Origin: Anaerolineae bacterium | GTDB taxonomy: Bacteria > Chloroflexota > Anaerolineae > Anaerolineales > E44-bin32 | DNA: 64,000 nucleotides | Direction of reading: 5' to 3' | Assembly (NCBI GenBank): GCA_030605795.1 | Contig: JAUWHR010000045.1 | Coordinates: 3,665 to 67,664, forward strand | In this document: positions 3,140-29,324 of the stretch, one piece after another | Position numbering within the stretch: position 1 is the first letter of the stretch | How the letters are laid out: each line of letters opens with the position of its first letter | Made by a program: the position numbers and the translations under genes | Notes under the pieces: generated by a model | What the model was told of the DNA's origin: nothing | What the model saw: only the letters and a program-made list of their open reading frames with translations | Database searches by the model: none

Positions 3140-3247
3140 TATAAGGGGAGTGTTCAGTCTTCCTGGGTATAATATTGATGAATGATCCATCCCAGTCAAG
3201 CCCAGTCCAGTAAATCTGGACGAGCGGTCAAGCTGGATGGACGACTG

Positions 3248-3325
3248 GATGAACGATCCCGTCTCGCTCTGCTCGTGGGATGAACGATCCCGTCTCGCTC
3301 TGCTCGCGGGATGAACGATCTTCGG
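3248..3325. repeat. Tandem direct repeat, 2.5 x 31 nt (GATGAACGATCCCGTCTCGCTCTGCTCGYGG)
   Basis: Units at 3248-3278 and 3279-3309 differ by 1 nt. A partial third unit spans 3310-3325. A related GATGAATGATCC occurs at ~3177. The repeat lies in the 580-nt gap upstream of the oppB-like gene. Confidence 0.9.
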
Positions 3326-3478
3326 TGGTTGCGTGTTTTAGATGCATAAGGGTTCAATTGTTTTATATGGGCATAGGTAAAACTGTGATCTTCGTTTTTA
3401 CACCGGGGTACGTCTCCTGTTCCTGCCCGGTTTCATTCTGGGCATAATGGTGAAGGTCGTCGGGACGTCTTATATTCC

Positions 3479-4636
3479 ATGTACAAGTACATTACTCGCC
3501 GCCTCGTAAGGGCTCTCATAACCCTGATCGTATTTCAGACGATACTCTTCATGTTGATCCAGGCTTTACCTAGGGACTATGCGAGCCTGGTTAGAATATC
3601 ACCCGCGCATCGGGATGCTATACGCGCCATGCTTGGGCTGGACCAGCCGGTTTGGAAGCAATACCTCAAGTGGATCGGACGATTTCTAGGAGGCGACCTG
3701 GGTTTCTCTTTTGCCTACCGTACCGTGCCGGTCAGCAGGATTTTGACCACAAGGGCACCGCGGACGTTGCTGCTATTTCTTCCGGCAGCCCTGGGGGGCT
3801 TTGCATTGGGTCTATGGCTCGGTAAGCACATCGCTTGGCGTCGTGGAAGCTGGCTGGAACTAGGAGCCACATTGGTTGGTACAGCCTCGTACACGTCATT
3901 TGCGCCATGGCTGGCCTTCATGATGATCAATGTATTTGCTCTGTCCTTGGGTTGGGCGCCTCCTGAGAATGTGGTTAACCCCAATGTTTGGATTCGGCAA
4001 AGGGTGTTACCTGAAACCGTCATCATCCGGTTATTTCAGACCATGGTTATGGTTGGTCTGCTGCTCTTGTTGTTGTGGCTAGTAACCCGGACAGCAGTCG
4101 CTCACTGCACCTATGCCCGTCTAGCTGGCGGCGGCCTCATCATCGGGGTGGTTATCCTCCTCTGGCTCCGTTCTGGCTGGATCCGGTTGGCGCTCGATAT
4201 TCTCCATCATATGGTTTTGCCGTTGATGACGCTCATGCTGCTTTCGTTTGGCGAGACGATGTTGCTCATGCGAACGACGATGGTCGATGTGCTCGGCAGC
4301 GACCATGTGCTTACGGCCCGGGCTAAAGGCATTCCGGACGGCGCCATTCGTGACCGGCATGTTGCCCGCCTTGCGCTGCTTCCGGTCCTCACCCATTTCA
4401 TCGTTCATTTACCGTTTGTGATCATCGGCAGCTTTGTCGTCGAAATGGTTTTCTCCTGGCGCGGCATGGGACAAGCGCTGTTTGATGCAGCAGATATGTA
4501 TGATCTTCCGGTGTTGATGGGTATCCTATCTGTGTCTGGGGTGGTTATCCTGTTCGCCCATCTGGTGCTCGACGTTTTAAATGCCTGGCTGGATCCACGG
4601 GTGCGAGATGAACACTTTCAAGCGATGGCGGGTTAA
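3479..4636 (+). CDS. ABC peptide transporter permease (OppB/DppB family)
   Basis: 385 aa and polytopic. N-terminal YI.RRL......L pattern, and a C-terminal LDPRVR motif typical of the BPD_transp_1 OppB family. Confidence 0.85.
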   Translation: MYKYITRRLVRALITLIVFQTILFMLIQALPRDYASLVRISPAHRDAIRAMLGLDQPVWKQYLKWIGRFLGGDLGFSFAYRTVPVSRILTTRAPRTLLLFLPAALGGFALGLWLGKHIAWRRGSWLELGATLVGTASYTSFAPWLAFMMINVFALSLGWAPPENVVNPNVWIRQRVLPETVIIRLFQTMVMVGLLLLLLWLVTRTAVAHCTYARLAGGGLIIGVVILLWLRSGWIRLALDILHHMVLPLMTLMLLSFGETMLLMRTTMVDVLGSDHVLTARAKGIPDGAIRDRHVARLALLPVLTHFIVHLPFVIIGSFVVEMVFSWRGMGQALFDAADMYDLPVLMGILSVSGVVILFAHLVLDVLNAWLDPRVRDEHFQAMAG

Positions 4637-4650
4637 GGAAGGGTCGGAGG

Positions 4651-5625
4651 ATGAACCACGACAATGATATGCCGTTGTCAGGGTACCATGGAAAGGACCT
4701 CCACTGCACACAAGTTTCCCACATATACTGCAAACGTCCGCTGTTAGCCTGGCGTAGGGATTGGAGCTTGTTCATCAGTAACCCGGTCGGGCTGCTGGGC
4801 CTAGGCCTCATCGTGATTTTCGCCTTGATGGGACTGACACACTCGATCCTGCTCTCCACGGTCTGGGATCGGACAACGTACCATCCCATGGTTGGTTTCG
4901 ACTACGATAACACGCCACATCCGAACCAACCCTCTTGGAAGCACCCGCTCGGCACAGATTCGATGGGGCGTGATGTGTTGAGCCAGCTGCTGTATTCATC
5001 CCGCACATCCTTCGGTGTTGGCTTGACAGCCAGCATTGTGGCTACTATCCTGGCAACAGCTGTCGGCGTGCTTTCAGTCTATTATGGCGGGAAGGTCGAC
5101 ACCCTTTTTATGGTCGTGGCTGATGCCTTCGTGCTTATGCCACCTCAGGTGGTCCTTCTAGTCGTGGGTCTGCTCATAGATATGGATTGGCTCCGGTTAG
5201 GTTTGGTCTATGGCGTCTTCGCCGGTCTGGGTACACTCGCACTCATTGCGAAGTCGCATGCGCTGTCGATCAGGGTAAAGCCCTATATTCAAGCAGCCCG
5301 GGTGGCTGGTGGAGGGGATTGGCACATCATACGCACGCATTTCTTGCCCAACATGCTCTCCCTCATTATCATGAATATGATGTTTACAGTGACCGGATCC
5401 GTGCTAATCGAGGCATTACTCTCCTTCTTTGGACGCACAAGGATCCGAATGAGTTGGGGGACGATGATCTGGTTCACACAATCGATCTTTCGGCTGTCTC
5501 CGTTTGGCGAGCAGTGGCATGTTATCCTCCCCCCCGCGTTCGCCATCATGCTTTTCTGCGGTGCGTTCTATATGGTTGGCCGAGCATTGGATAGTGTAGT
5601 CAACCCCCGCCTTGCTCAACGATAG
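4651..5625 (+). CDS. ABC peptide transporter permease (OppC/DppC family)
   Basis: 324 aa. Carries the OppC N-terminal motif (HPLGTDSMGRDVLSQL), TM segments and a C-terminal VNPRL. Paralog of 1-873. Confidence 0.85.
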   Translation: MNHDNDMPLSGYHGKDLHCTQVSHIYCKRPLLAWRRDWSLFISNPVGLLGLGLIVIFALMGLTHSILLSTVWDRTTYHPMVGFDYDNTPHPNQPSWKHPLGTDSMGRDVLSQLLYSSRTSFGVGLTASIVATILATAVGVLSVYYGGKVDTLFMVVADAFVLMPPQVVLLVVGLLIDMDWLRLGLVYGVFAGLGTLALIAKSHALSIRVKPYIQAARVAGGGDWHIIRTHFLPNMLSLIIMNMMFTVTGSVLIEALLSFFGRTRIRMSWGTMIWFTQSIFRLSPFGEQWHVILPPAFAIMLFCGAFYMVGRALDSVVNPRLAQR

Positions 5626-6555
5626 AATAAGCTGGGTAAAGGTATCGAATAGCCTCCATAGGCTTGGTTGGTTCGGGTCATTATTAATGGCACCTTACCT
5701 GTCATAACCTCGGTGCCGCAACCTCGCTCTTATCCATACCAGTTACAGTCGCCACCGCAACTGTCTCCATGTTCTAATCAGCTCTGGTTTAACAGCATCA
5801 CGCGGTTTGTGTGGACTGTAGCTTATCTGCACGTAGTTCTCGGTCAGAAATTTCACTTCACCAGCAGCAGGAACCAAAGCGCGTCCCCAGCGAGTCTCTC
5901 TAGCCGTAGGCGTCACACACTTGACGAGAGCCTCAGAAAGTTCATAAGCTGTATCTCCATTGTGGATGGGGGCCCGCAGGCGCTTACCGTGGCGTCGCAA
6001 CTGGTGGAAAATCTTCGTCGCGACTCCCGCCGTGGATAAATGTATAAGGCGCCAGCGGTCAATGACTAACCAGGCCACACCTCCCGACGCCAGACCAGCG
6101 AGGCTAACCAACATCAGCAATTACCAGTTTCGGTCCTGCTCAGCGCTCCTTATTTCTACCCCTGGCCGCTCTAGACGCAATTCGACTTCGGTCTGAGCTT
6201 CGCTCAGATGCCGGAGTTTACCCCTTCGGCAAACTCAGGACAATGCCTGAGCGGTTATCATAAGAACCTCAGCAGAACCTGCCACAGCCTGCTGAAGATA
6301 TCAGGATTAGCTCATACGAGGTAAGTCGAAGGGCTCAGGATGCAAATATAAAGTGGTTGCACTCTGTGCAGAACCACTCGACATAGCCTATCCTTTCGAC
6401 GGAGACGAAGGTCCCGAGCAATGTCGAGGGTTAGGGACGAAACCTGAGTGTTGCCAAAAGACTCGAAATAAACTCCGCGCAGTCGAAGTTCGCTACCGCG
6501 TATGCACCGTCAAGGGACGATTGCCAATCTCTGAGCCTATGTTAGAATTCAAAAT

Positions 6556-7701
6556 ATGAGCATCCCGCGCATCCTATTGGTGGATGATCAGCGCGAAGTC
6601 AGTCGCATGCTTCGTTCGAGTCTGGAGCTCTCCGGTCGGGACTACGTAGTCGTGGATGTACCCTCCGGGGAGGAAGCTTTGCTTGAACTCGGCCGCGGTC
6701 CGGTCGATCTGCTGGTGACTGATCTACGGCTGCCGGGCATTTCCGGATTGGAGTTGGTGGAGAAGGTTCGCCAACTCAACCCGGATGCACGTGCGATTCT
6801 AATCACCGGGCACCCTTCTGAGGAGGCACAATCGCAGGCAGATAATCTCGGAGTGGTTGCATTCCTGCAAAAGCCAATCGGCACCAGTATCTTTCTTGAA
6901 GCAGTTGATCATGCTATCAGGTTAAGGGGTCCCGCGGGCTCACCGGTGCACGTTCATAAGGAGGCAAAGTCGCGCATCGCTGATCGCCTGGGTGCTGTTC
7001 GGCGTGAACTAGGCGCAAAGGCAGCTATCCTAATCGACGACCGCAGCGAAGTAATCGTTCAGGCCGGAGACCTGATAGATCTTGACCTGGAAGCCGCTAT
7101 TCCATCGCTGATGGCCGCATTCAGCGCTGGGCTCAAGGTCAGCAGCTTGACGGGAGCCCTGCTGCCTGGCAACTTACAATACTTCGATGGAGATACGCAT
7201 GACCTTTACCTGACTAATGTGGGTTCGTTCTATGCCTTGCTGTTTGTCTTTCGCGGGAAACATGGAGTCGGGCAAATGGGGGCTGTTGTGCACTATGGAC
7301 GCCGGGCAGCTGAGGATATTATGGATATACTTTCTGCTCTAGGTGAAACTGATGCCGTCGAGTATGACCAAGGTGAGGAGCAGGTAACTAAGGTGGAGTG
7401 GATTGAGCGTGCAGGTCAGTCCTCCGCGCAGGCTAAGGAGGGGGGAGTAGATCCCGCTGGGGAGGAGAGTCGGGAACCATCAAAAGCCGAGGGGGACAAT
7501 GAAGGGCAAGATATAGATATTACCGACCAAGATGTTAAGCGCGAAGACGCGGAACAGTTCTGGGATCAGGCAGTATCAGACTCACCAGCTTTGAAAAAGT
7601 CAGAGGGTGATATTCTTACCTATGAAGAGGCGCGCGATCAGGGTTTACTAACTGACCAGGCTGACGATGAACCCTCGGAGGAAGGGAGGTTAGGAGGTTG
7701 A
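6556..7701 (+). CDS. Orphan response regulator: CheY-like receiver + Roadblock/LC7-like domain + acidic tail
   Basis: Receiver motifs are ILLVDDQ, ..DLLVTDLRLPG.SG and ..ILITG...KP. The middle region (aa ~140-260) reads LGAKAAILIDDRSEVIVQAGD...DLYLTNVGSFYALLFVF and resembles Roadblock/LC7 (MglB-like). The C-terminal ~110 aa are E/D-rich and low-complexity. Confidence 0.75.
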   Translation: MSIPRILLVDDQREVSRMLRSSLELSGRDYVVVDVPSGEEALLELGRGPVDLLVTDLRLPGISGLELVEKVRQLNPDARAILITGHPSEEAQSQADNLGVVAFLQKPIGTSIFLEAVDHAIRLRGPAGSPVHVHKEAKSRIADRLGAVRRELGAKAAILIDDRSEVIVQAGDLIDLDLEAAIPSLMAAFSAGLKVSSLTGALLPGNLQYFDGDTHDLYLTNVGSFYALLFVFRGKHGVGQMGAVVHYGRRAAEDIMDILSALGETDAVEYDQGEEQVTKVEWIERAGQSSAQAKEGGVDPAGEESREPSKAEGDNEGQDIDITDQDVKREDAEQFWDQAVSDSPALKKSEGDILTYEEARDQGLLTDQADDEPSEEGRLGG

Positions 7702-10204: not shown

Positions 10205-10316
10205 CGCCTTAATCGTCTCTTGCGCTAACCGACGACCGGGTTCATTGCAGAATGCATTGATCATATCGGTCAAATCGTTGAACTTTTGTTACGACGAAAT
10301 TCCATAATGTGACTGC

Positions 10317-10422
10317 ACTGAAAAATACCCAGCGCGAGAAGGGGAATGGTATGAGTGGGGAGTGGGCTTTGCCAACACCTCACATATATCACCTTTTCCT
10401 GCTGGCGGTTGTTGCTTTCAGT
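10317..10422 (+). repeat. Long-hairpin intergenic repeat, copy 1
   Basis: Shares CACTGAAAAA...GGGAATGGTAT..GTGGGCTTTGCC..CACATATA..TTTCCTGCTGGCGG..TTTCAGT with the copies at 22005, 27746 and 42866. Folds into one extended imperfect hairpin. Confidence 0.85.
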
Positions 10423-10553
10423 AGAATCATGACATCGATTGGTGAAGATCACAGCAGGGGCGGCTGCTTATGACGCCCCCGCTGTATATCCGGTGGGTTA
10501 AGCATCCAGAACATATTACTTATCAGTGCTGGAAAGATGGGTGATAGAGACTT

Positions 10554-22004: not shown

Positions 22005-22114
22005 TACTGAAAAAAGCTCAAATGCAAGAAAGGGAATGGTATATGTGGAGTGTGGGCTTTACCCACACTCCACATATACCCCTCTTTCCTGCTGGCGGCT
22101 GTCTTTTTAAACAG
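22005..22114 (+). repeat. Long-hairpin intergenic repeat, copy 2
   Basis: Apical stem GGTATATGTGGAGTGTGGGC-TTTA-CCCACACTCCACATATACC. The lower stem pairs GCAAGAAAGGG with CCCTCTTTCCTGC. Begins 29 nt upstream of the csp start codon. Confidence 0.85.
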
Positions 22115-22346
22115 ACTCAATAATACATTCCTTTGTGGCAGATCGTTCCGAAGCGACTTCAGATATGAGACTCATCATCTGAATAAGAACGGCTGCCAGC
22201 AATGAACGCACTCTAGCATGGCCTGAGGTTTGTGTCAACGCTGGATGAAATGGTAGAAAGGTCCCCAACGGCTTACCGGGTCATTGGGTAAGCAGCCAGC
22301 TTGTTGTATAGTTGGGAAGGTGAGGAGACAATATTGGAGAAGGAAA

Positions 22347-23325: not shown

Positions 23326-24264
23326 ATGACAGTACAGAATTCACGCCAGATAATCCAGTATAAAGAGACCTTTGATGAATTTCAGCATCTCATACTGTTG
23401 ATAGAGAAAGCCTTACGGCCACAGGGGGCGAATGTTACTGAGTCGAAAGAACTACTTGATCACATTCTCAGTGAAGAACGAGAGGTTGATATTGTGATCG
23501 AGTTCATCGACGGCATTCATCATGTGACGATTGGTGTGGAATGCAAAGGTGGTGGAAAGAAACCCAGAAGAGCAACAGTAGAATGGGTTGAACAAATGTG
23601 GGGAAAACACCTGACCTTGCCAACAGATAAACTAATCCTTGTTGCCAAGGCTGGATTCACCTCATCAGCGGAAAAGAAAGCTGCATTCTGGAACATTAAG
23701 ACGCTCAGTTTATCCCAGGCCGAAAATTCTGATTGGACCTCAGTTATTCGCAAGCTTAACTCGATTAATGTGGTAAATTTTCTTCTTCCGTACGCTACCC
23801 GCGCAACAGTGGTATTATGGATTGGCCCAAACGAAGATGAAGTTGATATGACCAAGATTGACTTGCAAAACTCAATGCTGTACGACGCAGCGGGCTCTAA
23901 AATCTCTACACCTCAGATACTTGTAGAAAGATGGCTCAGCGATCCAGTATTACTTCGAGAGATAGAAAAATTGGCTTATACAGACAGTGGCACAATTATC
24001 GAATTCGAGCGGAACCTAAAACCCGGAGAGTATTTAGTTGATGAAACTGGAAAAAAGCGGTCAGTCGTTGCAATCAAAGTCGAAGCAAAATGTAAAAAAG
24101 AAGTAACCACCGTTGAAATGTCGCAGGGATCGTACGGGGAAGCTGCGCTTTCATACGGAAAAGCCCGCTTCTTTAGAAAGTCGATGCAGTTTCTGGCAGT
24201 TCAACAACCGGATGATGATCCACGCCTCATTGTTTCAGTGAAGCAGCCAAAATCCAACAAATAA
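23326..24264 (+). CDS. PD-(D/E)xK restriction-endonuclease-like protein with unknown C-terminal domain (integron cassette ORF)
   Basis: The motif ..REVDIVIEF..(13 aa)..IGVECKGGG fits D...(D/E)xK of Mrr/NucS-like nuclease folds. The ~180 C-terminal aa carry no recognisable motif. Low GC. An attC follows immediately. Confidence 0.6.
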   Translation: MTVQNSRQIIQYKETFDEFQHLILLIEKALRPQGANVTESKELLDHILSEEREVDIVIEFIDGIHHVTIGVECKGGGKKPRRATVEWVEQMWGKHLTLPTDKLILVAKAGFTSSAEKKAAFWNIKTLSLSQAENSDWTSVIRKLNSINVVNFLLPYATRATVVLWIGPNEDEVDMTKIDLQNSMLYDAAGSKISTPQILVERWLSDPVLLREIEKLAYTDSGTIIEFERNLKPGEYLVDETGKKRSVVAIKVEAKCKKEVTTVEMSQGSYGEAALSYGKARFFRKSMQFLAVQQPDDDPRLIVSVKQPKSNK

Positions 24265-24508: not shown

Positions 24509-24994
24509 ATGAGACTGCGATTGAGGATCATCGCTTTTCCATTAGCCAGCATCACCCTTATTTCCTGCTGGTTCGTATTCTTCCTCTTCCTTCGTACTTC
24601 TCCCAGTAAGCCCCTTTTCATCATAGGGAATATCCTCATAGTAATCGGACTGCTGCTGATAATTCTTGCTATGTCTGCCTTACGAACACAGGGGATGACT
24701 CAAGATAAGCAGGACTTCACCGCAACAACAACGATCGTGAAGAGTGGGATCTACTCGATTGTCCGACACCCCCTTTATTTGGGCTGGCTTTTGATGTACC
24801 CCGCAGCTATGTTAGTGAGTCAACACTGGTTAGTATTAATATTAGGGGTAGTTGGTATGCTAAGCATGTATGTGATCACGATAGAAGCTGAGGACCGGCT
24901 AATAGATAAGTTTGGATTGGAATATCAGACGTATATGCAGGAAGTGCCAAGGTTCAATATCATCTTAGGCTTATGGTGCAAGTTACGGAGCTAG
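24509..24994 (+). CDS. Isoprenylcysteine carboxyl methyltransferase (ICMT/PEMT) family membrane protein
   Basis: 161 aa and polytopic. The GIYSIVRHPLYLG motif is typical of the ICMT/PEMT family. SD GGGAGAGGG. Confidence 0.7.
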   Translation: MRLRLRIIAFPLASITLISCWFVFFLFLRTSPSKPLFIIGNILIVIGLLLIILAMSALRTQGMTQDKQDFTATTTIVKSGIYSIVRHPLYLGWLLMYPAAMLVSQHWLVLILGVVGMLSMYVITIEAEDRLIDKFGLEYQTYMQEVPRFNIILGLWCKLRS

Positions 24995-25292: not shown

Positions 25293-25757
25293 ATACTAAC
25301 TAATCATTGTGCCTTACCTGCTCAGTGCGCCAGGAGCACCACCATCGACTTGGAGATCTACCTTGCTCAACTCGGCTTGGATAAGGTTCTCGGAGCTCAT
25401 CACTATAGCTGACAGAAGATCCTCTCACCTCACACCACCTCGGACAACCTTTTATCTTGGACATAGCTTAGCAAGGCAGCGTTCTGCCAGTGTGGGATGG
25501 ATCGTTTATTCAGCGTGTTTTCTGAGGCAGATTGATGGACTCGCGAAAAAAAGAATAATCTGGAGGGGATTCTTGGGTTAAATAAATGTCCCTTGAGTTG
25601 GGCTAGACTGTTTCTCGTGTTCTGAAGTAATATGCGCGGTTGAAACAGGCTGCATAATGTGTACTTACTGATGCTATACTGTTATGAGCCATTCAGCTCG
25701 TGACAAAGCTCTGCTTTAAATCGAACACAATAACCCGCCCCGGGGGATGGTAAAGAA

Positions 25758-27704
25758 ATGTTAGAAATCCGCTTGCTTGGGGAATTCGACGTTCGTCTAG
25801 AAGGGCAACCGATCGAGATCCCTTCGCGCCCGGCGCAGTCGCTACTGGCTTACCTTGTTCTAAACGCAGAAACCCGTCATCGTAGGGAGAAGTTAGCAGG
25901 TTTGCTGTGGCCGGAATCGGAGGAATCCAACGCCCGCAGCAACCTGCGCCACGCGCTGTGGCGACTCCGTAAGGCGATCGGGGAGAAGTATTTTCTCGCT
26001 GATAAAGTTTCCATCGCTTTCATACCCACCGAAGATTGCGAACTCGACGTCTCTTACTTTGGAGATGAGAGGACTGAGACGGAATCGACCATGGATCTGA
26101 TCCGCGAAGTCTCCGTCTACGGGGGTGAACTCCTACCAGGCTTCTACGAAGGCTGGGTTGTTTTGGAACGAGAACAGCTGCGAGCTACTTTTGAGCATAC
26201 GATCCAGAGGCTGTTAGATTTGTTGATTGAAAAGCAGTCTTGGTTGGAGGTCCTTGAATGGGGAGAGCGGTGGATCGCGACGGGATATGTGCCTGAGCCC
26301 GCATACCGAGCATTGATGATCGCGTATCGCGGTCTGGGGGATTCCTCAGGGGTGGCTGCGGTATACCAGAGATGTTGTGAAGCGCTACACAGCGAGTTGG
26401 GTGTCGAGCCGTCGGAACAAACGCGGTCGATATTTGATAGGCTCTCCAAAGGTGGAGAGCCCTCGGTGGTTGCACGAGTTTACCCAGAAAGAGAGAGGGT
26501 TGATGCCTCAGTAGACGCGGTAAGGATGCTGCTTAAGCACTGGCGGCAAAAGGGTGTGAAGATTTTGGATCTGGCTAGCCTAGCTATGGTTTATGCTGCC
26601 AGGCCGGATGACCCGTTTGACCCAGAAGATGCTGCTTTGCTTATCCGTAGTGCACTACAGCACGAAGTCGATATTGAACCGTGGCTTAAGCGCGCTGGCT
26701 CACCGCAGGTCGTGGTGGCAACACTAGATGAAGTATTAGGCACATATCCAAAGCCTCGGATTAGGAAGAGGATCGTCCAAGCGCTTAAAGGCTTGGAGTA
26801 CGAGGAAGTGGATAATGTATTGCTGCATGTTGTCGAGAGTGACGATTCGGCCGAGATCCGGGCCGAAGCTGCGGTGACACTTGCCCAAAGGGGAAAACAG
26901 GATGTTGTAGTAGAACTTTTGCTGGACCAGATAAACTTAAGTGATAATGCAGCGGCAATTGCGGCTTTCGTTGCGGTTGTTGATGAAGTGGGTCTCTCCA
27001 AGGAGGTTGGTCCTTATCCCAAGCTCCCCGTCCTAGCAGCGCTTGCCGAGAGGCGTTGGAAAGATGGACGGCGATTGCTATTGAGGCAGGTGGGGCGGGT
27101 AAGCCTTGGGGCGGTAATCATATCCGCTTTGCATGGCAGCGCCGCGCCATTCTATATAGCACTCTCGCTTCCAGATAGTTATCACGATACGCTACAAGTT
27201 CTATCTCTACCCACATGGATGCTCAGTGGAGCCCTGGGTATGATGCTAATCGGTGGGGCTCAGGGTTTGGCTTCCAGTTTCGCAATTGGATTGGCCGATG
27301 TTTTCTTGAGGGGTCGAACGCGGAGATTCTGGCGCCATATACTAGGAAGTCTGGCGGGTTTAGCTCACGCTGGATTTCTCATTGTATATACGATAATGGG
27401 TAATATGGAACCCACGTCTGAGTCCACAGTTTATATATCTGTATGCGTTTTTTATAGTTTACTTCTTGGTGCTGCGTTGTCGATTGTCTTTCCGCAACTC
27501 GGGACTTCATCCTCTACTCGGCAACAACTCAAACGCGCGGCGTGGGGGGCGGCAGCGGCTGCCCTGGCGACGACCCCATATGTCATTGGCTATCTATTTT
27601 ACTTTAGCGAGGCCCCAGGCACGGTACCGGAACGCCTGGTATTTTCAATCTTACTTACACTGGGGATCGCGCTCGCACTTAGAAATCCTGGCGTAGAAAT
27701 CTAA
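25758..27704 (+). CDS. SARP-family (OmpR-type wHTH + BTAD) regulator fused to HEAT-like repeats and a C-terminal ~6-TM domain
   Basis: The N-terminus reads LEIRLLGEFDVRLEGQPIEI..RPAQSLLAYLVL......REKLAGLLWPE....ARSNLRHALWRLRKA. BTAD reads ..YRALMIAYRGLGD...AAVYQRC...L..ELGVEPS..T. The middle has DDSAEIRAEAAVTLAQRG (HEAT-like). The last ~210 aa contain six hydrophobic helices. Confidence 0.75.
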   Translation: MLEIRLLGEFDVRLEGQPIEIPSRPAQSLLAYLVLNAETRHRREKLAGLLWPESEESNARSNLRHALWRLRKAIGEKYFLADKVSIAFIPTEDCELDVSYFGDERTETESTMDLIREVSVYGGELLPGFYEGWVVLEREQLRATFEHTIQRLLDLLIEKQSWLEVLEWGERWIATGYVPEPAYRALMIAYRGLGDSSGVAAVYQRCCEALHSELGVEPSEQTRSIFDRLSKGGEPSVVARVYPERERVDASVDAVRMLLKHWRQKGVKILDLASLAMVYAARPDDPFDPEDAALLIRSALQHEVDIEPWLKRAGSPQVVVATLDEVLGTYPKPRIRKRIVQALKGLEYEEVDNVLLHVVESDDSAEIRAEAAVTLAQRGKQDVVVELLLDQINLSDNAAAIAAFVAVVDEVGLSKEVGPYPKLPVLAALAERRWKDGRRLLLRQVGRVSLGAVIISALHGSAAPFYIALSLPDSYHDTLQVLSLPTWMLSGALGMMLIGGAQGLASSFAIGLADVFLRGRTRRFWRHILGSLAGLAHAGFLIVYTIMGNMEPTSESTVYISVCVFYSLLLGAALSIVFPQLGTSSSTRQQLKRAAWGAAAAALATTPYVIGYLFYFSEAPGTVPERLVFSILLTLGIALALRNPGVEI

Positions 27705-27745
27705 ACAGCTTCAAATCCGCGAATTTAGGTTTCCAATGGTTGAGT

Positions 27746-27855
27746 GCACTGAAAAAAAAACTACCCGCGCGGAGTGGGGAGGGATATAGGTGCGGGCGCA
27801 GCCCGCGCCCCCACATATATCCCGGTCCTCTTCTTGCGGTTGACCCTTTTTCAGT
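27746..27855 (+). repeat. Long-hairpin intergenic repeat, copy 3
   Basis: CACTGAAAAAAAAA...GGGATATAGGTGCGGGCGCAGCCCGCGCCCCCACATATATCCC...CCCTTTTTCAGTG. The terminal inverted CACTGAAAAA/TTTTTCAGTG is intact in this copy. Confidence 0.85.
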
Positions 27856-27901
27856 GGATTAATTGTAATAATCCTGCATCATAATAAGGAGGCTTGTTTC
27901 G

Positions 27902-28117
27902 ATGAATGATAAATCACGATGGGGCAAAGTCGCTCAGTTGATTGACGATGCGCTAGCGGATGAGTCTCTGAGGAAGAAATTACAAGAGGGGAGTCGTGAG
28001 GAAAAATTGGAGATTCTTACCGAACGAGGTTTCACCGAGGAAGATAGAGTGAACCTCGAAAAAGACCTTCAACTGCTCACCCCGGACGCGAGTGCCGCGA
28101 TAAGATTTTGGCTCTAA
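27902..28117 (+). CDS. Nif11-like leader-peptide-domain protein (candidate RiPP/pheromone precursor)
   Basis: Strong SD AAGGAGG. KVAQLIDDALADESLRKKLQEG..EEKLEILTERGFTEEDRVNLEKDL follows the Nif11/NHLP leader pattern. The short tail TPDASAAIRFWL ends the protein. Confidence 0.65.
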   Translation: MNDKSRWGKVAQLIDDALADESLRKKLQEGSREEKLEILTERGFTEEDRVNLEKDLQLLTPDASAAIRFWL

Positions 28118-28343
28118 GGTTGGGGGGAGTTATTGAACCCTATGTTACGTTGAATAATCCTTGCAACTGAACTGTTCTTATCCATTGGATCTGTTCGATC
28201 AATTTACTCATCTTGTGAATCCGGTGTGCTACCAATAGCAGGGTTCGATTTCACCATTTCCCATGTCTAAACGATTTTTTTGTTACGAGTGGCCAGAAGG
28301 GGCTGTGATGTCTCGCGGCCTATAGTCTTTTTGGATAGCATCG

Positions 28344-29324
28344 ATGAAGCTTGAACTAACTCAAGATAGCCGAGCGGCGAGACTGTTGGAATCTCTCGAT
28401 GCTAAGTATTTTCAATTTGCGGATGATCTTCCACCTCCATTTAGAGATATGGCGCTGATGGAAAGCACGATAGTGGGTCAGCCTATCGACGAGCCTTTCC
28501 AGGGTCCATCAAAAATGAACCCTCTCATTGCCTGCACGCCCTGGCTTTTCTGGGAAACGTATTGCGAGTTGGACGATGAGACCTTCCTGTATATTGCTGA
28601 GGCAGGCGCATTTATATCGTTGGCTTCGGTCCTGATGGATCACCTAGTCGATGGGCAGGCCGAGCAGCCAGAAGCCATGGCCCTATTTCAGCGTGCCGTC
28701 TATGATCATGGGGTTGCTGGTTTCCGAGCAATGTTTCCCAAGACATCGACCTTTTGGAGGGATTTCGAACGTTTATCGAGGGAATACTTGACGGCTCTGG
28801 GGGCGGAGATCGATGCTCAGTCTAATCCTGAGCGATTTACTCAACAAGCCTTTTTCGCTTCTGCAGCTGGCAAAGTATCTCCAATTGCGATCACGATCGC
28901 TGCGCTGTCAGAGGCCTCGGGTCAGCCATCCATATTGGAACCAATAGAGATTTCATTTAGACACTCGTTTATAGCCGGTCAGATCCATGACGATGTCCTG
29001 GATTGGCGATCCGATTTCGGAAATCGGCATCTCACCTTCTTTCTGACACGGCTGGCTCCGCCGGAAATATGGCCCGCGGCTGAATGGCCATCGGTTGATG
29101 AGCTTGAAGCGATTAACGACACCAATTGGGTTGATGTCAATTACTTTGATTTAGTTATTGATTATTTTGACCGATGTATTGAAGCCGTTGAGGGCATTCA
29201 ATGTGCGGGTTGGATAGAGTATTTAGTGGAATATAGAGCAGTGGCTGAAGAGCATCAAAAAGCGGCTGTGGCCCGACACCTGCTGCGTGTCCTTGGGCCA
29301 GTCATTCAGCCGCCGAGCGATTAA
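28344..29324 (+). CDS. Divergent polyprenyl-synthase-fold (isoprenoid synthase superfamily) protein, ComQ-like candidate
   Basis: Two Asp-rich motifs at FARM/SARM-like spacing: LMD99HLVD103 and FIAGQIHD216DVLD220. The SARM context matches FQ..DD..D. A GK(V/T) motif lies between them. Confidence 0.6.
   Translation: MKLELTQDSRAARLLESLDAKYFQFADDLPPPFRDMALMESTIVGQPIDEPFQGPSKMNPLIACTPWLFWETYCELDDETFLYIAEAGAFISLASVLMDHLVDGQAEQPEAMALFQRAVYDHGVAGFRAMFPKTSTFWRDFERLSREYLTALGAEIDAQSNPERFTQQAFFASAAGKVSPIAITIAALSEASGQPSILEPIEISFRHSFIAGQIHDDVLDWRSDFGNRHLTFFLTRLAPPEIWPAAEWPSVDELEAINDTNWVDVNYFDLVIDYFDRCIEAVEGIQCAGWIEYLVEYRAVAEEHQKAAVARHLLRVLGPVIQPPSD

Follow-up and report, generated by a model that had tools for sequence, protein, structure and literature searches.

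A membrane-integrated SARP-type regulator as candidate receptor for a putative tryptophan-prenylated peptide in Anaerolineae

Can a SARP-type transcriptional regulator sit in the membrane and act there as the receptor of a peptide encoded beside it? This question is raised by a locus on a contig of an Anaerolineae bacterium (GenBank assembly GCA_030605795.1, JAUWHR010000045.1), of which a stretch of 64,000 nucleotides (nt), referred to here as the window, was analysed. An open reading frame (ORF) on the forward strand (25758-27704, ATG start, 648 amino acids (aa)), located exactly as in the original prediction, encodes a regulator with a SARP N-terminus, HEAT-like repeats and a C-terminal domain of six transmembrane helices (6TM). 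The gene of a small peptide (27902-28117) lies directly downstream, as had also been stated, and is followed by that of a putative peptide-modifying enzyme. To our knowledge, described SARPs are soluble proteins, either small or extended by NB-ARC/TPR, LAL or FHA domains. ComQ and ComX of Bacillus are the founding pair for the prenylation of tryptophan, and we know of a defined receptor for prenyl-tryptophan peptide signalling in that genus only, where the signal is read by the two-component system ComP-ComA. The interpretation that we favour, with somewhat better than even confidence and from comparative sequence analysis, is that the regulator would be a membrane-integrated one-component SARP receptor for its own prenylated peptide, with the roles of ComP and ComA collapsed into a single SARP-HEAT-6TM protein.

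The SARP domain (residues 1-235; 25758-26462, + strand) consists of a winged helix followed by a BTAD domain, and is proposed to be the cytoplasmic output of the protein. BTAD (PF03704) is identified by Pfam at residues 118-228, with an E-value of 1e-13 and 52.4 bits against a cut-off of 22.1, and is found in all full-length homologues of the regulator. The winged helix (Trans_reg_C, residues 27-77) scores 19.5 bits in the window protein, under the Pfam cut-off of 26.2, and exceeds it in the homologue P0047, with 30.8 bits. A sequence comparison of the first 250 aa with the PDB returned EmbR (2fez, E 2e-5, with an alignment spanning regulator residues 2-77) and AfsR (8hvr, E 8e-4). The AlphaFold2 model of the regulator, built on 47 homologues and with a mean predicted local distance difference test score (pLDDT) of 85, superposes on the SARP domain of AfsR (Foldseek E 3e-7, TM-score 0.71) and also on EmbR. 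This domain is the best-conserved part of the regulator (mean column conservation 0.67-0.71). By fold and by domains the regulator belongs to the SARP family, and Pfam, the PDB sequence matches and the model confirm the arrangement that had been read from the window sequence, namely an OmpR-type winged helix-turn-helix (wHTH) plus BTAD followed by HEAT-like repeats.

These repeats (residues 244-410; 26487-26987, + strand) join the output domain to the membrane domain, and are modelled as an alpha-solenoid of around ten helices in paired hairpins (pLDDT 85-95). HEAT_2 scores 26.8 bits at residues 331-398 of the window protein, just below the cut-off of 27.7, and 28-43 bits, above the cut-off, in several homologues. 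HEAT-repeat membership thus holds at the level of the family and is borderline for the window sequence alone.

The membrane module (residues 422-640; 27021-27677, + strand) comprises an Arg-rich juxtamembrane helix and the six transmembrane helices, and is the proposed peptide sensor. Hydropathy averaged over the 47 homologues displays six hydrophobic cores, at about residues 447-470, 481-512, 527-548, 556-579, 594-615 and 623-641, and no comparable stretch within residues 1-420. The helices of the AlphaFold2 model match these cores, with a pLDDT of around 90 in the membrane region, and Lys and Arg number around 15 in the four predicted inside segments versus around 2 in the three predicted outside loops. 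The six strongly hydrophobic C-terminal helices noticed at the outset are in this way borne out across the family by hydropathy, by the positive-inside pattern and by the modelled helices. The topology is N-in/C-in, with outside loops of just 8-10 residues.

Within this module R433 and W434 of the juxtamembrane helix and G534 are invariant, and D514 is kept in at least 90% of the sequences. No Cys, His, Ser, Glu or Asp is invariant inside the 6TM domain in the alignment of homologues. Conserved Gly-rich positions are held by the second to fourth transmembrane helices (TM2-TM4). The least conserved residues are 461-480 (27138-27197), corresponding to the outer end of TM1 and loop 1, and 591-630 (27528-27647), corresponding to TM5, loop 3 and TM6; specificity may be determined by these variable parts. 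When 1.84 billion representative proteins were searched exhaustively with a profile of the 6TM domain, it was found in 98 of them only, always at the C-terminus. The matches shorter than about 350 aa resemble, by appearance only, fragments from short contigs, and a full-length stand-alone version is not evident. No family member has a histidine kinase core (HisKA_3/HATPase_c) or an N-terminal 6TM domain, and the significant Foldseek matches of the full-length regulator model are confined to its SARP part.

Does this unusual regulator really belong with its downstream neighbours? Around 95 full-length homologues were collected (40-96% identity, 640-685 aa); those with a named organism all come from metagenome-assembled genomes of Anaerolineae/Anaerolineales, the closest (96% identity) from an Anaerolineales bacterium. 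All five contigs reached through regulator homologues (57-40% identity) carry an ORF of 73-141 aa and another of 323-360 aa directly downstream. From the other side, a scan of the GTDB species representatives with the enzyme profile gave 21 Chloroflexota loci, 18 of which have a HEAT-6TM protein encoded on the same strand directly upstream; the other three, at two contig ends and one masked stretch, were not assessable. The linkage of regulator, peptide and enzyme is consequently kept in every assessable locus (5/5 by way of the regulator and 18/21 by way of the enzyme), and it persists despite unrelated flanks in two of the compared loci (L005 and L008). The gap between the regulator and peptide genes is of 30-80 nt in most loci, which suggests an operon. 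In one Chloroflexota genome assembled from a metagenome ('uncultured Chloroflexia bacterium', L026), both the regulator (3622-5632) and the enzyme (5926-6988) are split by frameshifts, which would point either to decay of the locus or to a fault in the assembly.

The peptide gene (27902-28117, + strand), with an AAGGAGG sequence 8 nt 5' of its ATG, encodes a 71-aa precursor formed by a helical leader and a C-terminal core, ...AAIRFWL (around 28094-28114), whose Trp is second from the end. In all loci a homologous small ORF is found at this place. Across 19 aligned peptides only Met1 and Trp70 are invariant, and the residue before this Trp is always Phe or Trp. Apart from this [FW]W motif the core is hypervariable: to the AAIRFWL of the window correspond LGFWRFGI, IQWWSPLA, SVPWWWW, PLKFWWW, ELGWWFW and APGFWG in other loci. 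The Nif11 label for the leader is not supported: the window peptide reaches 21.0 bits where the cut-off lies at 23.8 (PF07862), and 14.8 where it lies at 32.3 (TIGR03798). A Nif11-type leader was also rejected for the family, in which one of the 19 peptides matches at E <0.01, below the cut-off. Some loci depart from the simple arrangement: tandem peptide paralogues (3392-3613, ...RPGFWY, and 3824-4048, ...RRGFWY) lie behind a SARP-kinase receptor in L036, the peptide of L013 (around 1700-2140) has a duplicated leader and an 18-aa tail following RFWF, and that of L008 (7983-8408) reaches 141 aa, with IWF and then a tail.

The third gene (28344-29324, + strand) encodes a 326-aa protein with the trans-isoprenyl-diphosphate-synthase (trans-IPPS) fold, a putative peptide tryptophan prenyltransferase. 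Its 89 homologues are all unnamed and without any Pfam match. In a search of the PDB with the family profile, the eight best matches were all trans-IPPS (best E 0.003, the alignment covering the second Asp-rich motif). The AlphaFold2 model (pLDDT 95) is that of a compact soluble IPPS fold without membrane segment, and its top 50 Foldseek matches in the PDB all have this fold, nearly all being trans-isoprenyl-diphosphate synthases (TM-scores of up to 0.72-0.75), with the indole prenyltransferase Ord1 among them. The first Asp motif, DHLVD (D99, D103; 28638-28652, + strand), is of the DxxxD and not of the DDxxD type, and the second, QIHDDVLDW (Q213, D216, D217, D220, W221; 28980-29006, + strand), is a DDxxD motif. 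Over 40 sequences D99, D103, D216, D217, D220 and W221 are invariant, and K177 and Q213 are present in at least 90%.

Because of its fold, its motifs and its gene context, the enzyme fits the group formed by ComQ, PalQ and StheQ, by analogy with which prenylation of a peptide Trp would be its activity. The description of the predicted peptide-modifying partner is thereby sharpened to an IPPS-fold protein of the PalQ/StheQ/ComQ type; the system would therefore be a ComX-like one, based on a prenyl-tryptophan peptide. Among the distant relatives of the enzyme are a 696-aa Nostoc protein with an IPPS-like domain and a squalene-hopene-cyclase-like C-terminal domain (L030, 5686-7776), a 705-aa Bacteroidetes protein with a SPASM domain (L031, 5986-8103), and, also outside Chloroflexota, a 332-aa Silvibacterium protein with a weak polyprenyl_synt match (L032, 5641-6639).

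Which part of the regulator, then, goes with the peptide? One indication comes from the exchange of output domains. The N-terminal partner of HEAT-6TM is a SARP domain in the majority of the proteins, and a Ser/Thr kinase, an adenylate/guanylate cyclase, a SARP domain plus kinase or a kinase plus SARP domain in others; one HEAT-6TM protein has a CarboxypepD_reg domain in this place. The Trp-peptide and the enzyme are still found downstream of the kinase, cyclase and SARP-kinase variants in all cases that could be assigned to a contig (L027, L028, L029, L035 and L036). A constant HEAT-6TM, peptide and enzyme with a changing N-terminus is the expected pattern of a sensor module with interchangeable outputs and, since the unit persists when a kinase or a cyclase replaces the SARP domain, the conserved functional unit holds the membrane domain and not the SARP domain.

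The other indication is co-divergence, which was assessed in 14 pairs of loci with a SARP identity of 74% or more. In the three pairs with a near-identical peptide core (window-L009, L004-L016 and L021-L022) the identity is 0.78-0.82 for the 6TM domain and 0.74-0.82 for the enzyme. One pair of the same motif class with two differing positions (L005-L025) has 0.48 and 0.60, respectively, and the ten pairs with different cores have 0.29-0.38 and 0.34-0.43. The sharpest case is L006-L022, with a SARP identity of 0.89 and a 6TM identity of 0.33. Between the window and L004, the identity of the regulator is of 0.6-0.95 up to around residue 440, the start of TM1, and falls from there to 0.15-0.42, whereas the flanking orthologues (acylphosphatase, DUF498 and RNase Z) are 72-81% identical. 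The hypervariable sequence thus forms a single uninterrupted stretch, made up of the 3' third of the regulator gene, the peptide gene and the enzyme gene. Output swapping, together with the co-divergence of 6TM domain, peptide and enzyme, points to the membrane module as the specificity partner of the peptide.

What would the SARP domain act upon? The original prediction had envisaged SARP heptamer boxes upstream of 27902 and 28344. Such boxes were found, although in front of the regulator gene instead, while both of those positions are preceded by just short two-copy chance repeats. The candidate SARP operator (25478-25522, + strand) is formed by four heptamers, CAGCGTT-N4-CAGTGTG-N5-GATCGTT-N4-CAGCGTG, whose starts are 11, 12 and 11 nt apart. 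This array scores 54 bits with a 40-nt position weight matrix, versus 5.8 bits at the next best site of the window. Arrays of this CAGCGTG-like kind, with three or four heptamers at spacings of 11-12 nt, precede the regulator in 13 SARP-type loci, in the same orientation, and are absent from all three loci whose receptor lacks the SARP domain (hypergeometric p ~0.04). L007 has a second array (5183-5222), 792 nt 5' of the regulator and overlapping the start of a called 76-aa ORF, besides its copy at -122.

The alignment of five loci leaves two invariant islands only, the heptamer array and an extended -10 element. In the window the latter (TGCTATACT; 25672-25680, + strand) lies 83 nt 5' of the regulator ATG, without a recognisable -35, and is present as a single copy. 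Among the 16 loci having a matching element, 14 carry TGnTA[TC]A[CA]T at 73-93 nt 5' of the start codon. Direct repeats of 10-12 nt beside the conserved -10 are not significant in most loci. Known SARPs bind direct repeats spaced by 11 or 22 bp, the 3' repeat lying 8 bp from the -10 (PMC10936776). Judging from these sequence elements, autoregulation through the heptamer array is plausible rather than established.

Taken together, these features suggest the following mechanism. Regulator, peptide and enzyme genes would be transcribed as an operon from the conserved extended -10 promoter, and the enzyme would attach a lipid to the Trp that the precursor carries in its [FW]W motif. Cleavage of the leader after a pair of small residues would release a lipopeptide of 6-9 residues, which would leave the cell or enter the membrane. 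Since the outside loops of the receptor are so short, the lipopeptide would be sensed within the six-helix bundle or at its surface, and the HEAT solenoid would relay the signal to the SARP domain in the cytoplasm. This domain would then bind the upstream CAGCGTG-like heptamers, spaced by 11 nt, and activate its own operon, closing an auto-induction loop. The receptor in a one-component, quorum-sensing-like loop that had been proposed for this regulator is supported by both observations that could have refuted it, the C-terminal region behaving as a membrane domain across the family and the linkage being conserved, whereas we infer its receptor function, as we do the prenylation, the processing or export of the peptide, ligand binding by the 6TM domain, SARP binding to the array and the sign of the regulation. 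A broader proposal, to which we give an even chance, is that HEAT-6TM would represent an undescribed class of intramembrane receptors for prenyl-tryptophan lipopeptides, furnished with SARP, Ser/Thr kinase or cyclase outputs, and diversifying into pherotype-like classes along with the peptide and the prenyltransferase.

Several points weigh against the receptor interpretation. The host organism is uncultured, and neither profile searches nor Foldseek detected relatives of the 6TM domain among known receptors. Neither single-sequence nor profile searches connected the enzyme to ComQ, StheQ or PalQ, the profile search of 5.8 billion proteins giving only the Anaerolineae family. Four SARP-type loci (L006, L008, L021 and L022) and the two SARP-kinase loci lack the heptamer array, and its distance to the conserved -10, where it is present, ranges from 24 to 276 nt instead of the canonical 8 bp. 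Furthermore, no exporter or leader peptidase gene lies within the conserved block. This last point, like the lack of any separate protease gene in the block, would be accounted for if the six-helix domain were itself a peptide processing, export or immunity module, AgrB-like or an exporter, whose fused outputs couple regulation to peptide flux. AgrB is likewise a six-helix protein of around 190 aa, and it co-varies with AgrD; co-divergence is equally expected of any protein that processes or exports the peptide. However, the absence of an invariant catalytic-type residue in the membrane domain argues against a peptidase role, and an AgrB-like protease was disfavoured for that reason. The fixed fusion through HEAT to a DNA-binding, kinase or cyclase output is typical of sensors and unlike peptidases or transporters, and the 98 matches include no evident full-length stand-alone version, the short ones looking like fragments. 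We therefore consider a processing or export module unlikely.

A similarly low probability is given to the regulator being the ordinary SARP activator of a cluster for a ribosomally synthesized and post-translationally modified peptide, with a membrane domain that serves as an anchor or senses an unrelated cue. Secondary-metabolite clusters are the classical targets of SARPs (PMC10972967, PMC10936776) and, the variable block being contiguous in DNA, the membrane domain could conceivably have hitch-hiked, its co-variation reflecting the exchange of a linked block. Nevertheless, the break in identity falls not at the gene end but 630 nt inside the regulator gene, at the domain boundary around residue 440, the block is far more diverged than the flanking genes on either side, and HEAT-6TM, peptide and enzyme stay together when a kinase or a cyclase takes the place of the SARP domain. 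Less probable still, and in our opinion very improbable, is a scaffolding role of the membrane domain, in recruiting the prenyltransferase or in providing it with membrane-embedded polyprenyl donors; the domain would then co-vary with the enzyme and not with the peptide. The identities of enzyme and 6TM domain do drop together, and prenyl donors above C15 partition into membranes; against this, the enzyme is modelled as a soluble protein lacking any membrane segment, StheQ and PalQ are active in vitro as soluble enzymes with soluble donors, and the fusion to transcription, kinase and cyclase outputs would be left unexplained. All three account less well than a one-component peptide receptor for the swapping of output domains and for the break at the domain boundary.

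How would such a receptor system compare with those already known? In ComQXPA loci polymorphism affects ComQ and ComX, and ComP has a highly variable membrane sensor and a conserved cytoplasmic part (PMC4008528). The Anaerolineae locus resembles this system in the presence of an IPPS-superfamily enzyme beside a precursor of around 55-75 aa, whose short hypervariable core has a conserved Trp, and in the polytopic membrane sensor of the same cluster, with enzyme, peptide and sensor variable and the output part conserved. Contrary to ComQXPA, there is no histidine kinase or response regulator here, the sensor and the SARP output being part of one polypeptide. The sensor of ComP has 8-10 helices with extracellular loops and is N-terminal, whereas the one described here has six helices with minimal loops and is C-terminal. 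The gene order is receptor-X-Q instead of Q-X-P-A, the enzyme keeps a second DDxxD motif, which ComQ lacks (PMC10853753), and profile searches detected no sequence-level homology of the proteins of the locus to ComQ or ComP.

In the PalP-PalX-PalQ system from Paenibacillus alvei, a sensor kinase is accompanied by a precursor that has a leader and ends in Trp, and by a prenyltransferase of the IPPS fold (PMC10853753). This system shares with our locus the gene logic and order, from the membrane sensor to the precursor (PalX core DNVRRFFW) and the IPPS-fold enzyme, and the Asp motifs of PalQ, D89/D93 and D200/D204, correspond to D99/D103 and D216/D220 here (PMC10853753). Differences lie in the sensor, PalP being a histidine kinase, in the NHLP leader of PalX and in the host, a Firmicute; PalQ uses dimethylallyl diphosphate.

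Closer in taxonomy is the pair StheQ/StheX from Sphaerobacter thermophilus, also of Chloroflexota. StheX, of 69 aa and with WW at -3/-2, receives a farnesyl group in vitro on its penultimate residue, a Trp (bioRxiv 10.64898/2026.08.29.745113), the position that Trp also has in the ...RFWL of the window peptide. Residues K174, Q212 and N215/D216/D219 of StheQ stand at near-identical positions to K177, Q213 and D216/D217/D220, and its metal ligands D85/D89 correspond to the first motif, DxxxD (bioRxiv 10.64898/2026.08.29.745113). StheQ differs in having NDxxD as a pseudo second Asp-rich motif and in the gene order, Q and then X. The preprint names no receptor or regulator for this pair, and calls its biological role unknown (bioRxiv 10.64898/2026.08.29.745113). 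Our scan of GTDB with enzyme patterns missed Sphaerobacter, these patterns being too specific to reach it.

Membrane-tethered activators of the ToxR/CadC type also combine sensing and activation in one protein, with a cytoplasmic OmpR-type winged helix at the N-terminus (PMC5430869, PMC7888679). Nevertheless, they have a single transmembrane helix and a folded periplasmic sensor, whereas the regulator combines a BTAD domain and a HEAT solenoid with six helices and is practically devoid of any extracytoplasmic domain. The regulator is neither a ToxR-type nor a ComP-type receptor. With the SARP family (AfsR, EmbR, ActII-ORF4, DnrI) it shares the wHTH plus BTAD fold and a candidate operator made of direct heptamer repeats spaced by one turn, and it differs from it in being an integral membrane protein from Chloroflexota and not from Actinomycetota, and in an array without the 8-bp offset from the -10. 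The agr system (AgrB-AgrD-AgrC-AgrA) likewise has a contiguous hypervariable cassette of peptide, modifying protein and short-loop sensor of 6-7 helices between conserved flanks; its chemistry is that of a thiolactone and not of a prenyl-Trp, its receptor is a histidine kinase, and there is no homology.

A modified-peptide auto-induction loop is of a known kind, while the proposed type of receptor, the sensor domain and the phylum-level setting are new. A literature search for membrane-bound SARPs found nothing relevant, the word 'transmembrane' is absent from the 2024 review of the SARP family and from the AfsR structure paper, and the 2014 census of ComQXPA contains no mention of Chloroflexi (PMC4008528). 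If the proposed function is correct, this would be the first case of a ComX-type pheromone read by a one-component receptor, and also the first system of cell-cell signalling to be defined in Anaerolineae, and it would hint at the kind of protein to be sought beside the orphan StheQ/StheX pair of Chloroflexota. The locus offers a testable receptor candidate in which sensing and transcription are fused, with a sensor domain that has no relatives among known families, and the SARP, kinase and cyclase swaps, along with the specificity classes, provide built-in experimental controls. It would extend the SARP family past the soluble activators of actinomycetes and give a first handle on cell-cell communication in the Anaerolineae, which are abundant and rarely cultured. 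The three-gene cassette, plus its candidate operator, could also serve, once reconstructed in a heterologous host, as an orthogonal switch that responds to a peptide.

The remaining features of the region concern its spacers and neighbours. In the window the gap between the regulator and peptide genes reaches 197 nt, because of an inserted palindromic element (27740-27865, no strand assigned) that is not part of the system; in L009, the closest relative at the species level, this gap is of around 55 nt. The element is REP/MITE-like, of around 125 nt, an inverted repeat with 35-nt arms and the core GGTATATGTGGGGTGTGGGC...GCCCACACCCCACATATACC, and has three copies in the window (around 10315-10435, 22005-22125 and 27740-27865). 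The copy in this gap may provide the peptide gene alone with a promoter (TTGACC-18-TGTAAT). A terminator-like hairpin with a T-run (28300-28330, + strand), located in the spacer that follows the peptide gene and just 5' of the enzyme ATG, could set a high ratio of peptide to enzyme; terminator-like sites in the region are no more numerous than in shuffled sequence. Rfam returned nothing above noise in the leader or intergenic regions.

At 760 nt 5' of the regulator, a membrane methyltransferase of the ICMT/PEMT family is encoded (24509-24994, + strand), similar to isoprenylcysteine carboxyl methyltransferases and suggestive beside a prenyl-peptide system. As a fourth component that would methylate the carboxyl group of the prenylated C-terminus it was rejected, since it occurs in L001-L003 only and is absent from L004-L008 and L035; being confined to the lineage of the window itself, it is excluded from the system. 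Further upstream, a 312-aa ORF (23326-24264, + strand) has a weak match, below the cut-off, to Mrr-type restriction endonucleases. Elsewhere in the window, at 3247-3308, a 31-nt unit is duplicated in tandem, the two copies being between 97% identical and perfect.

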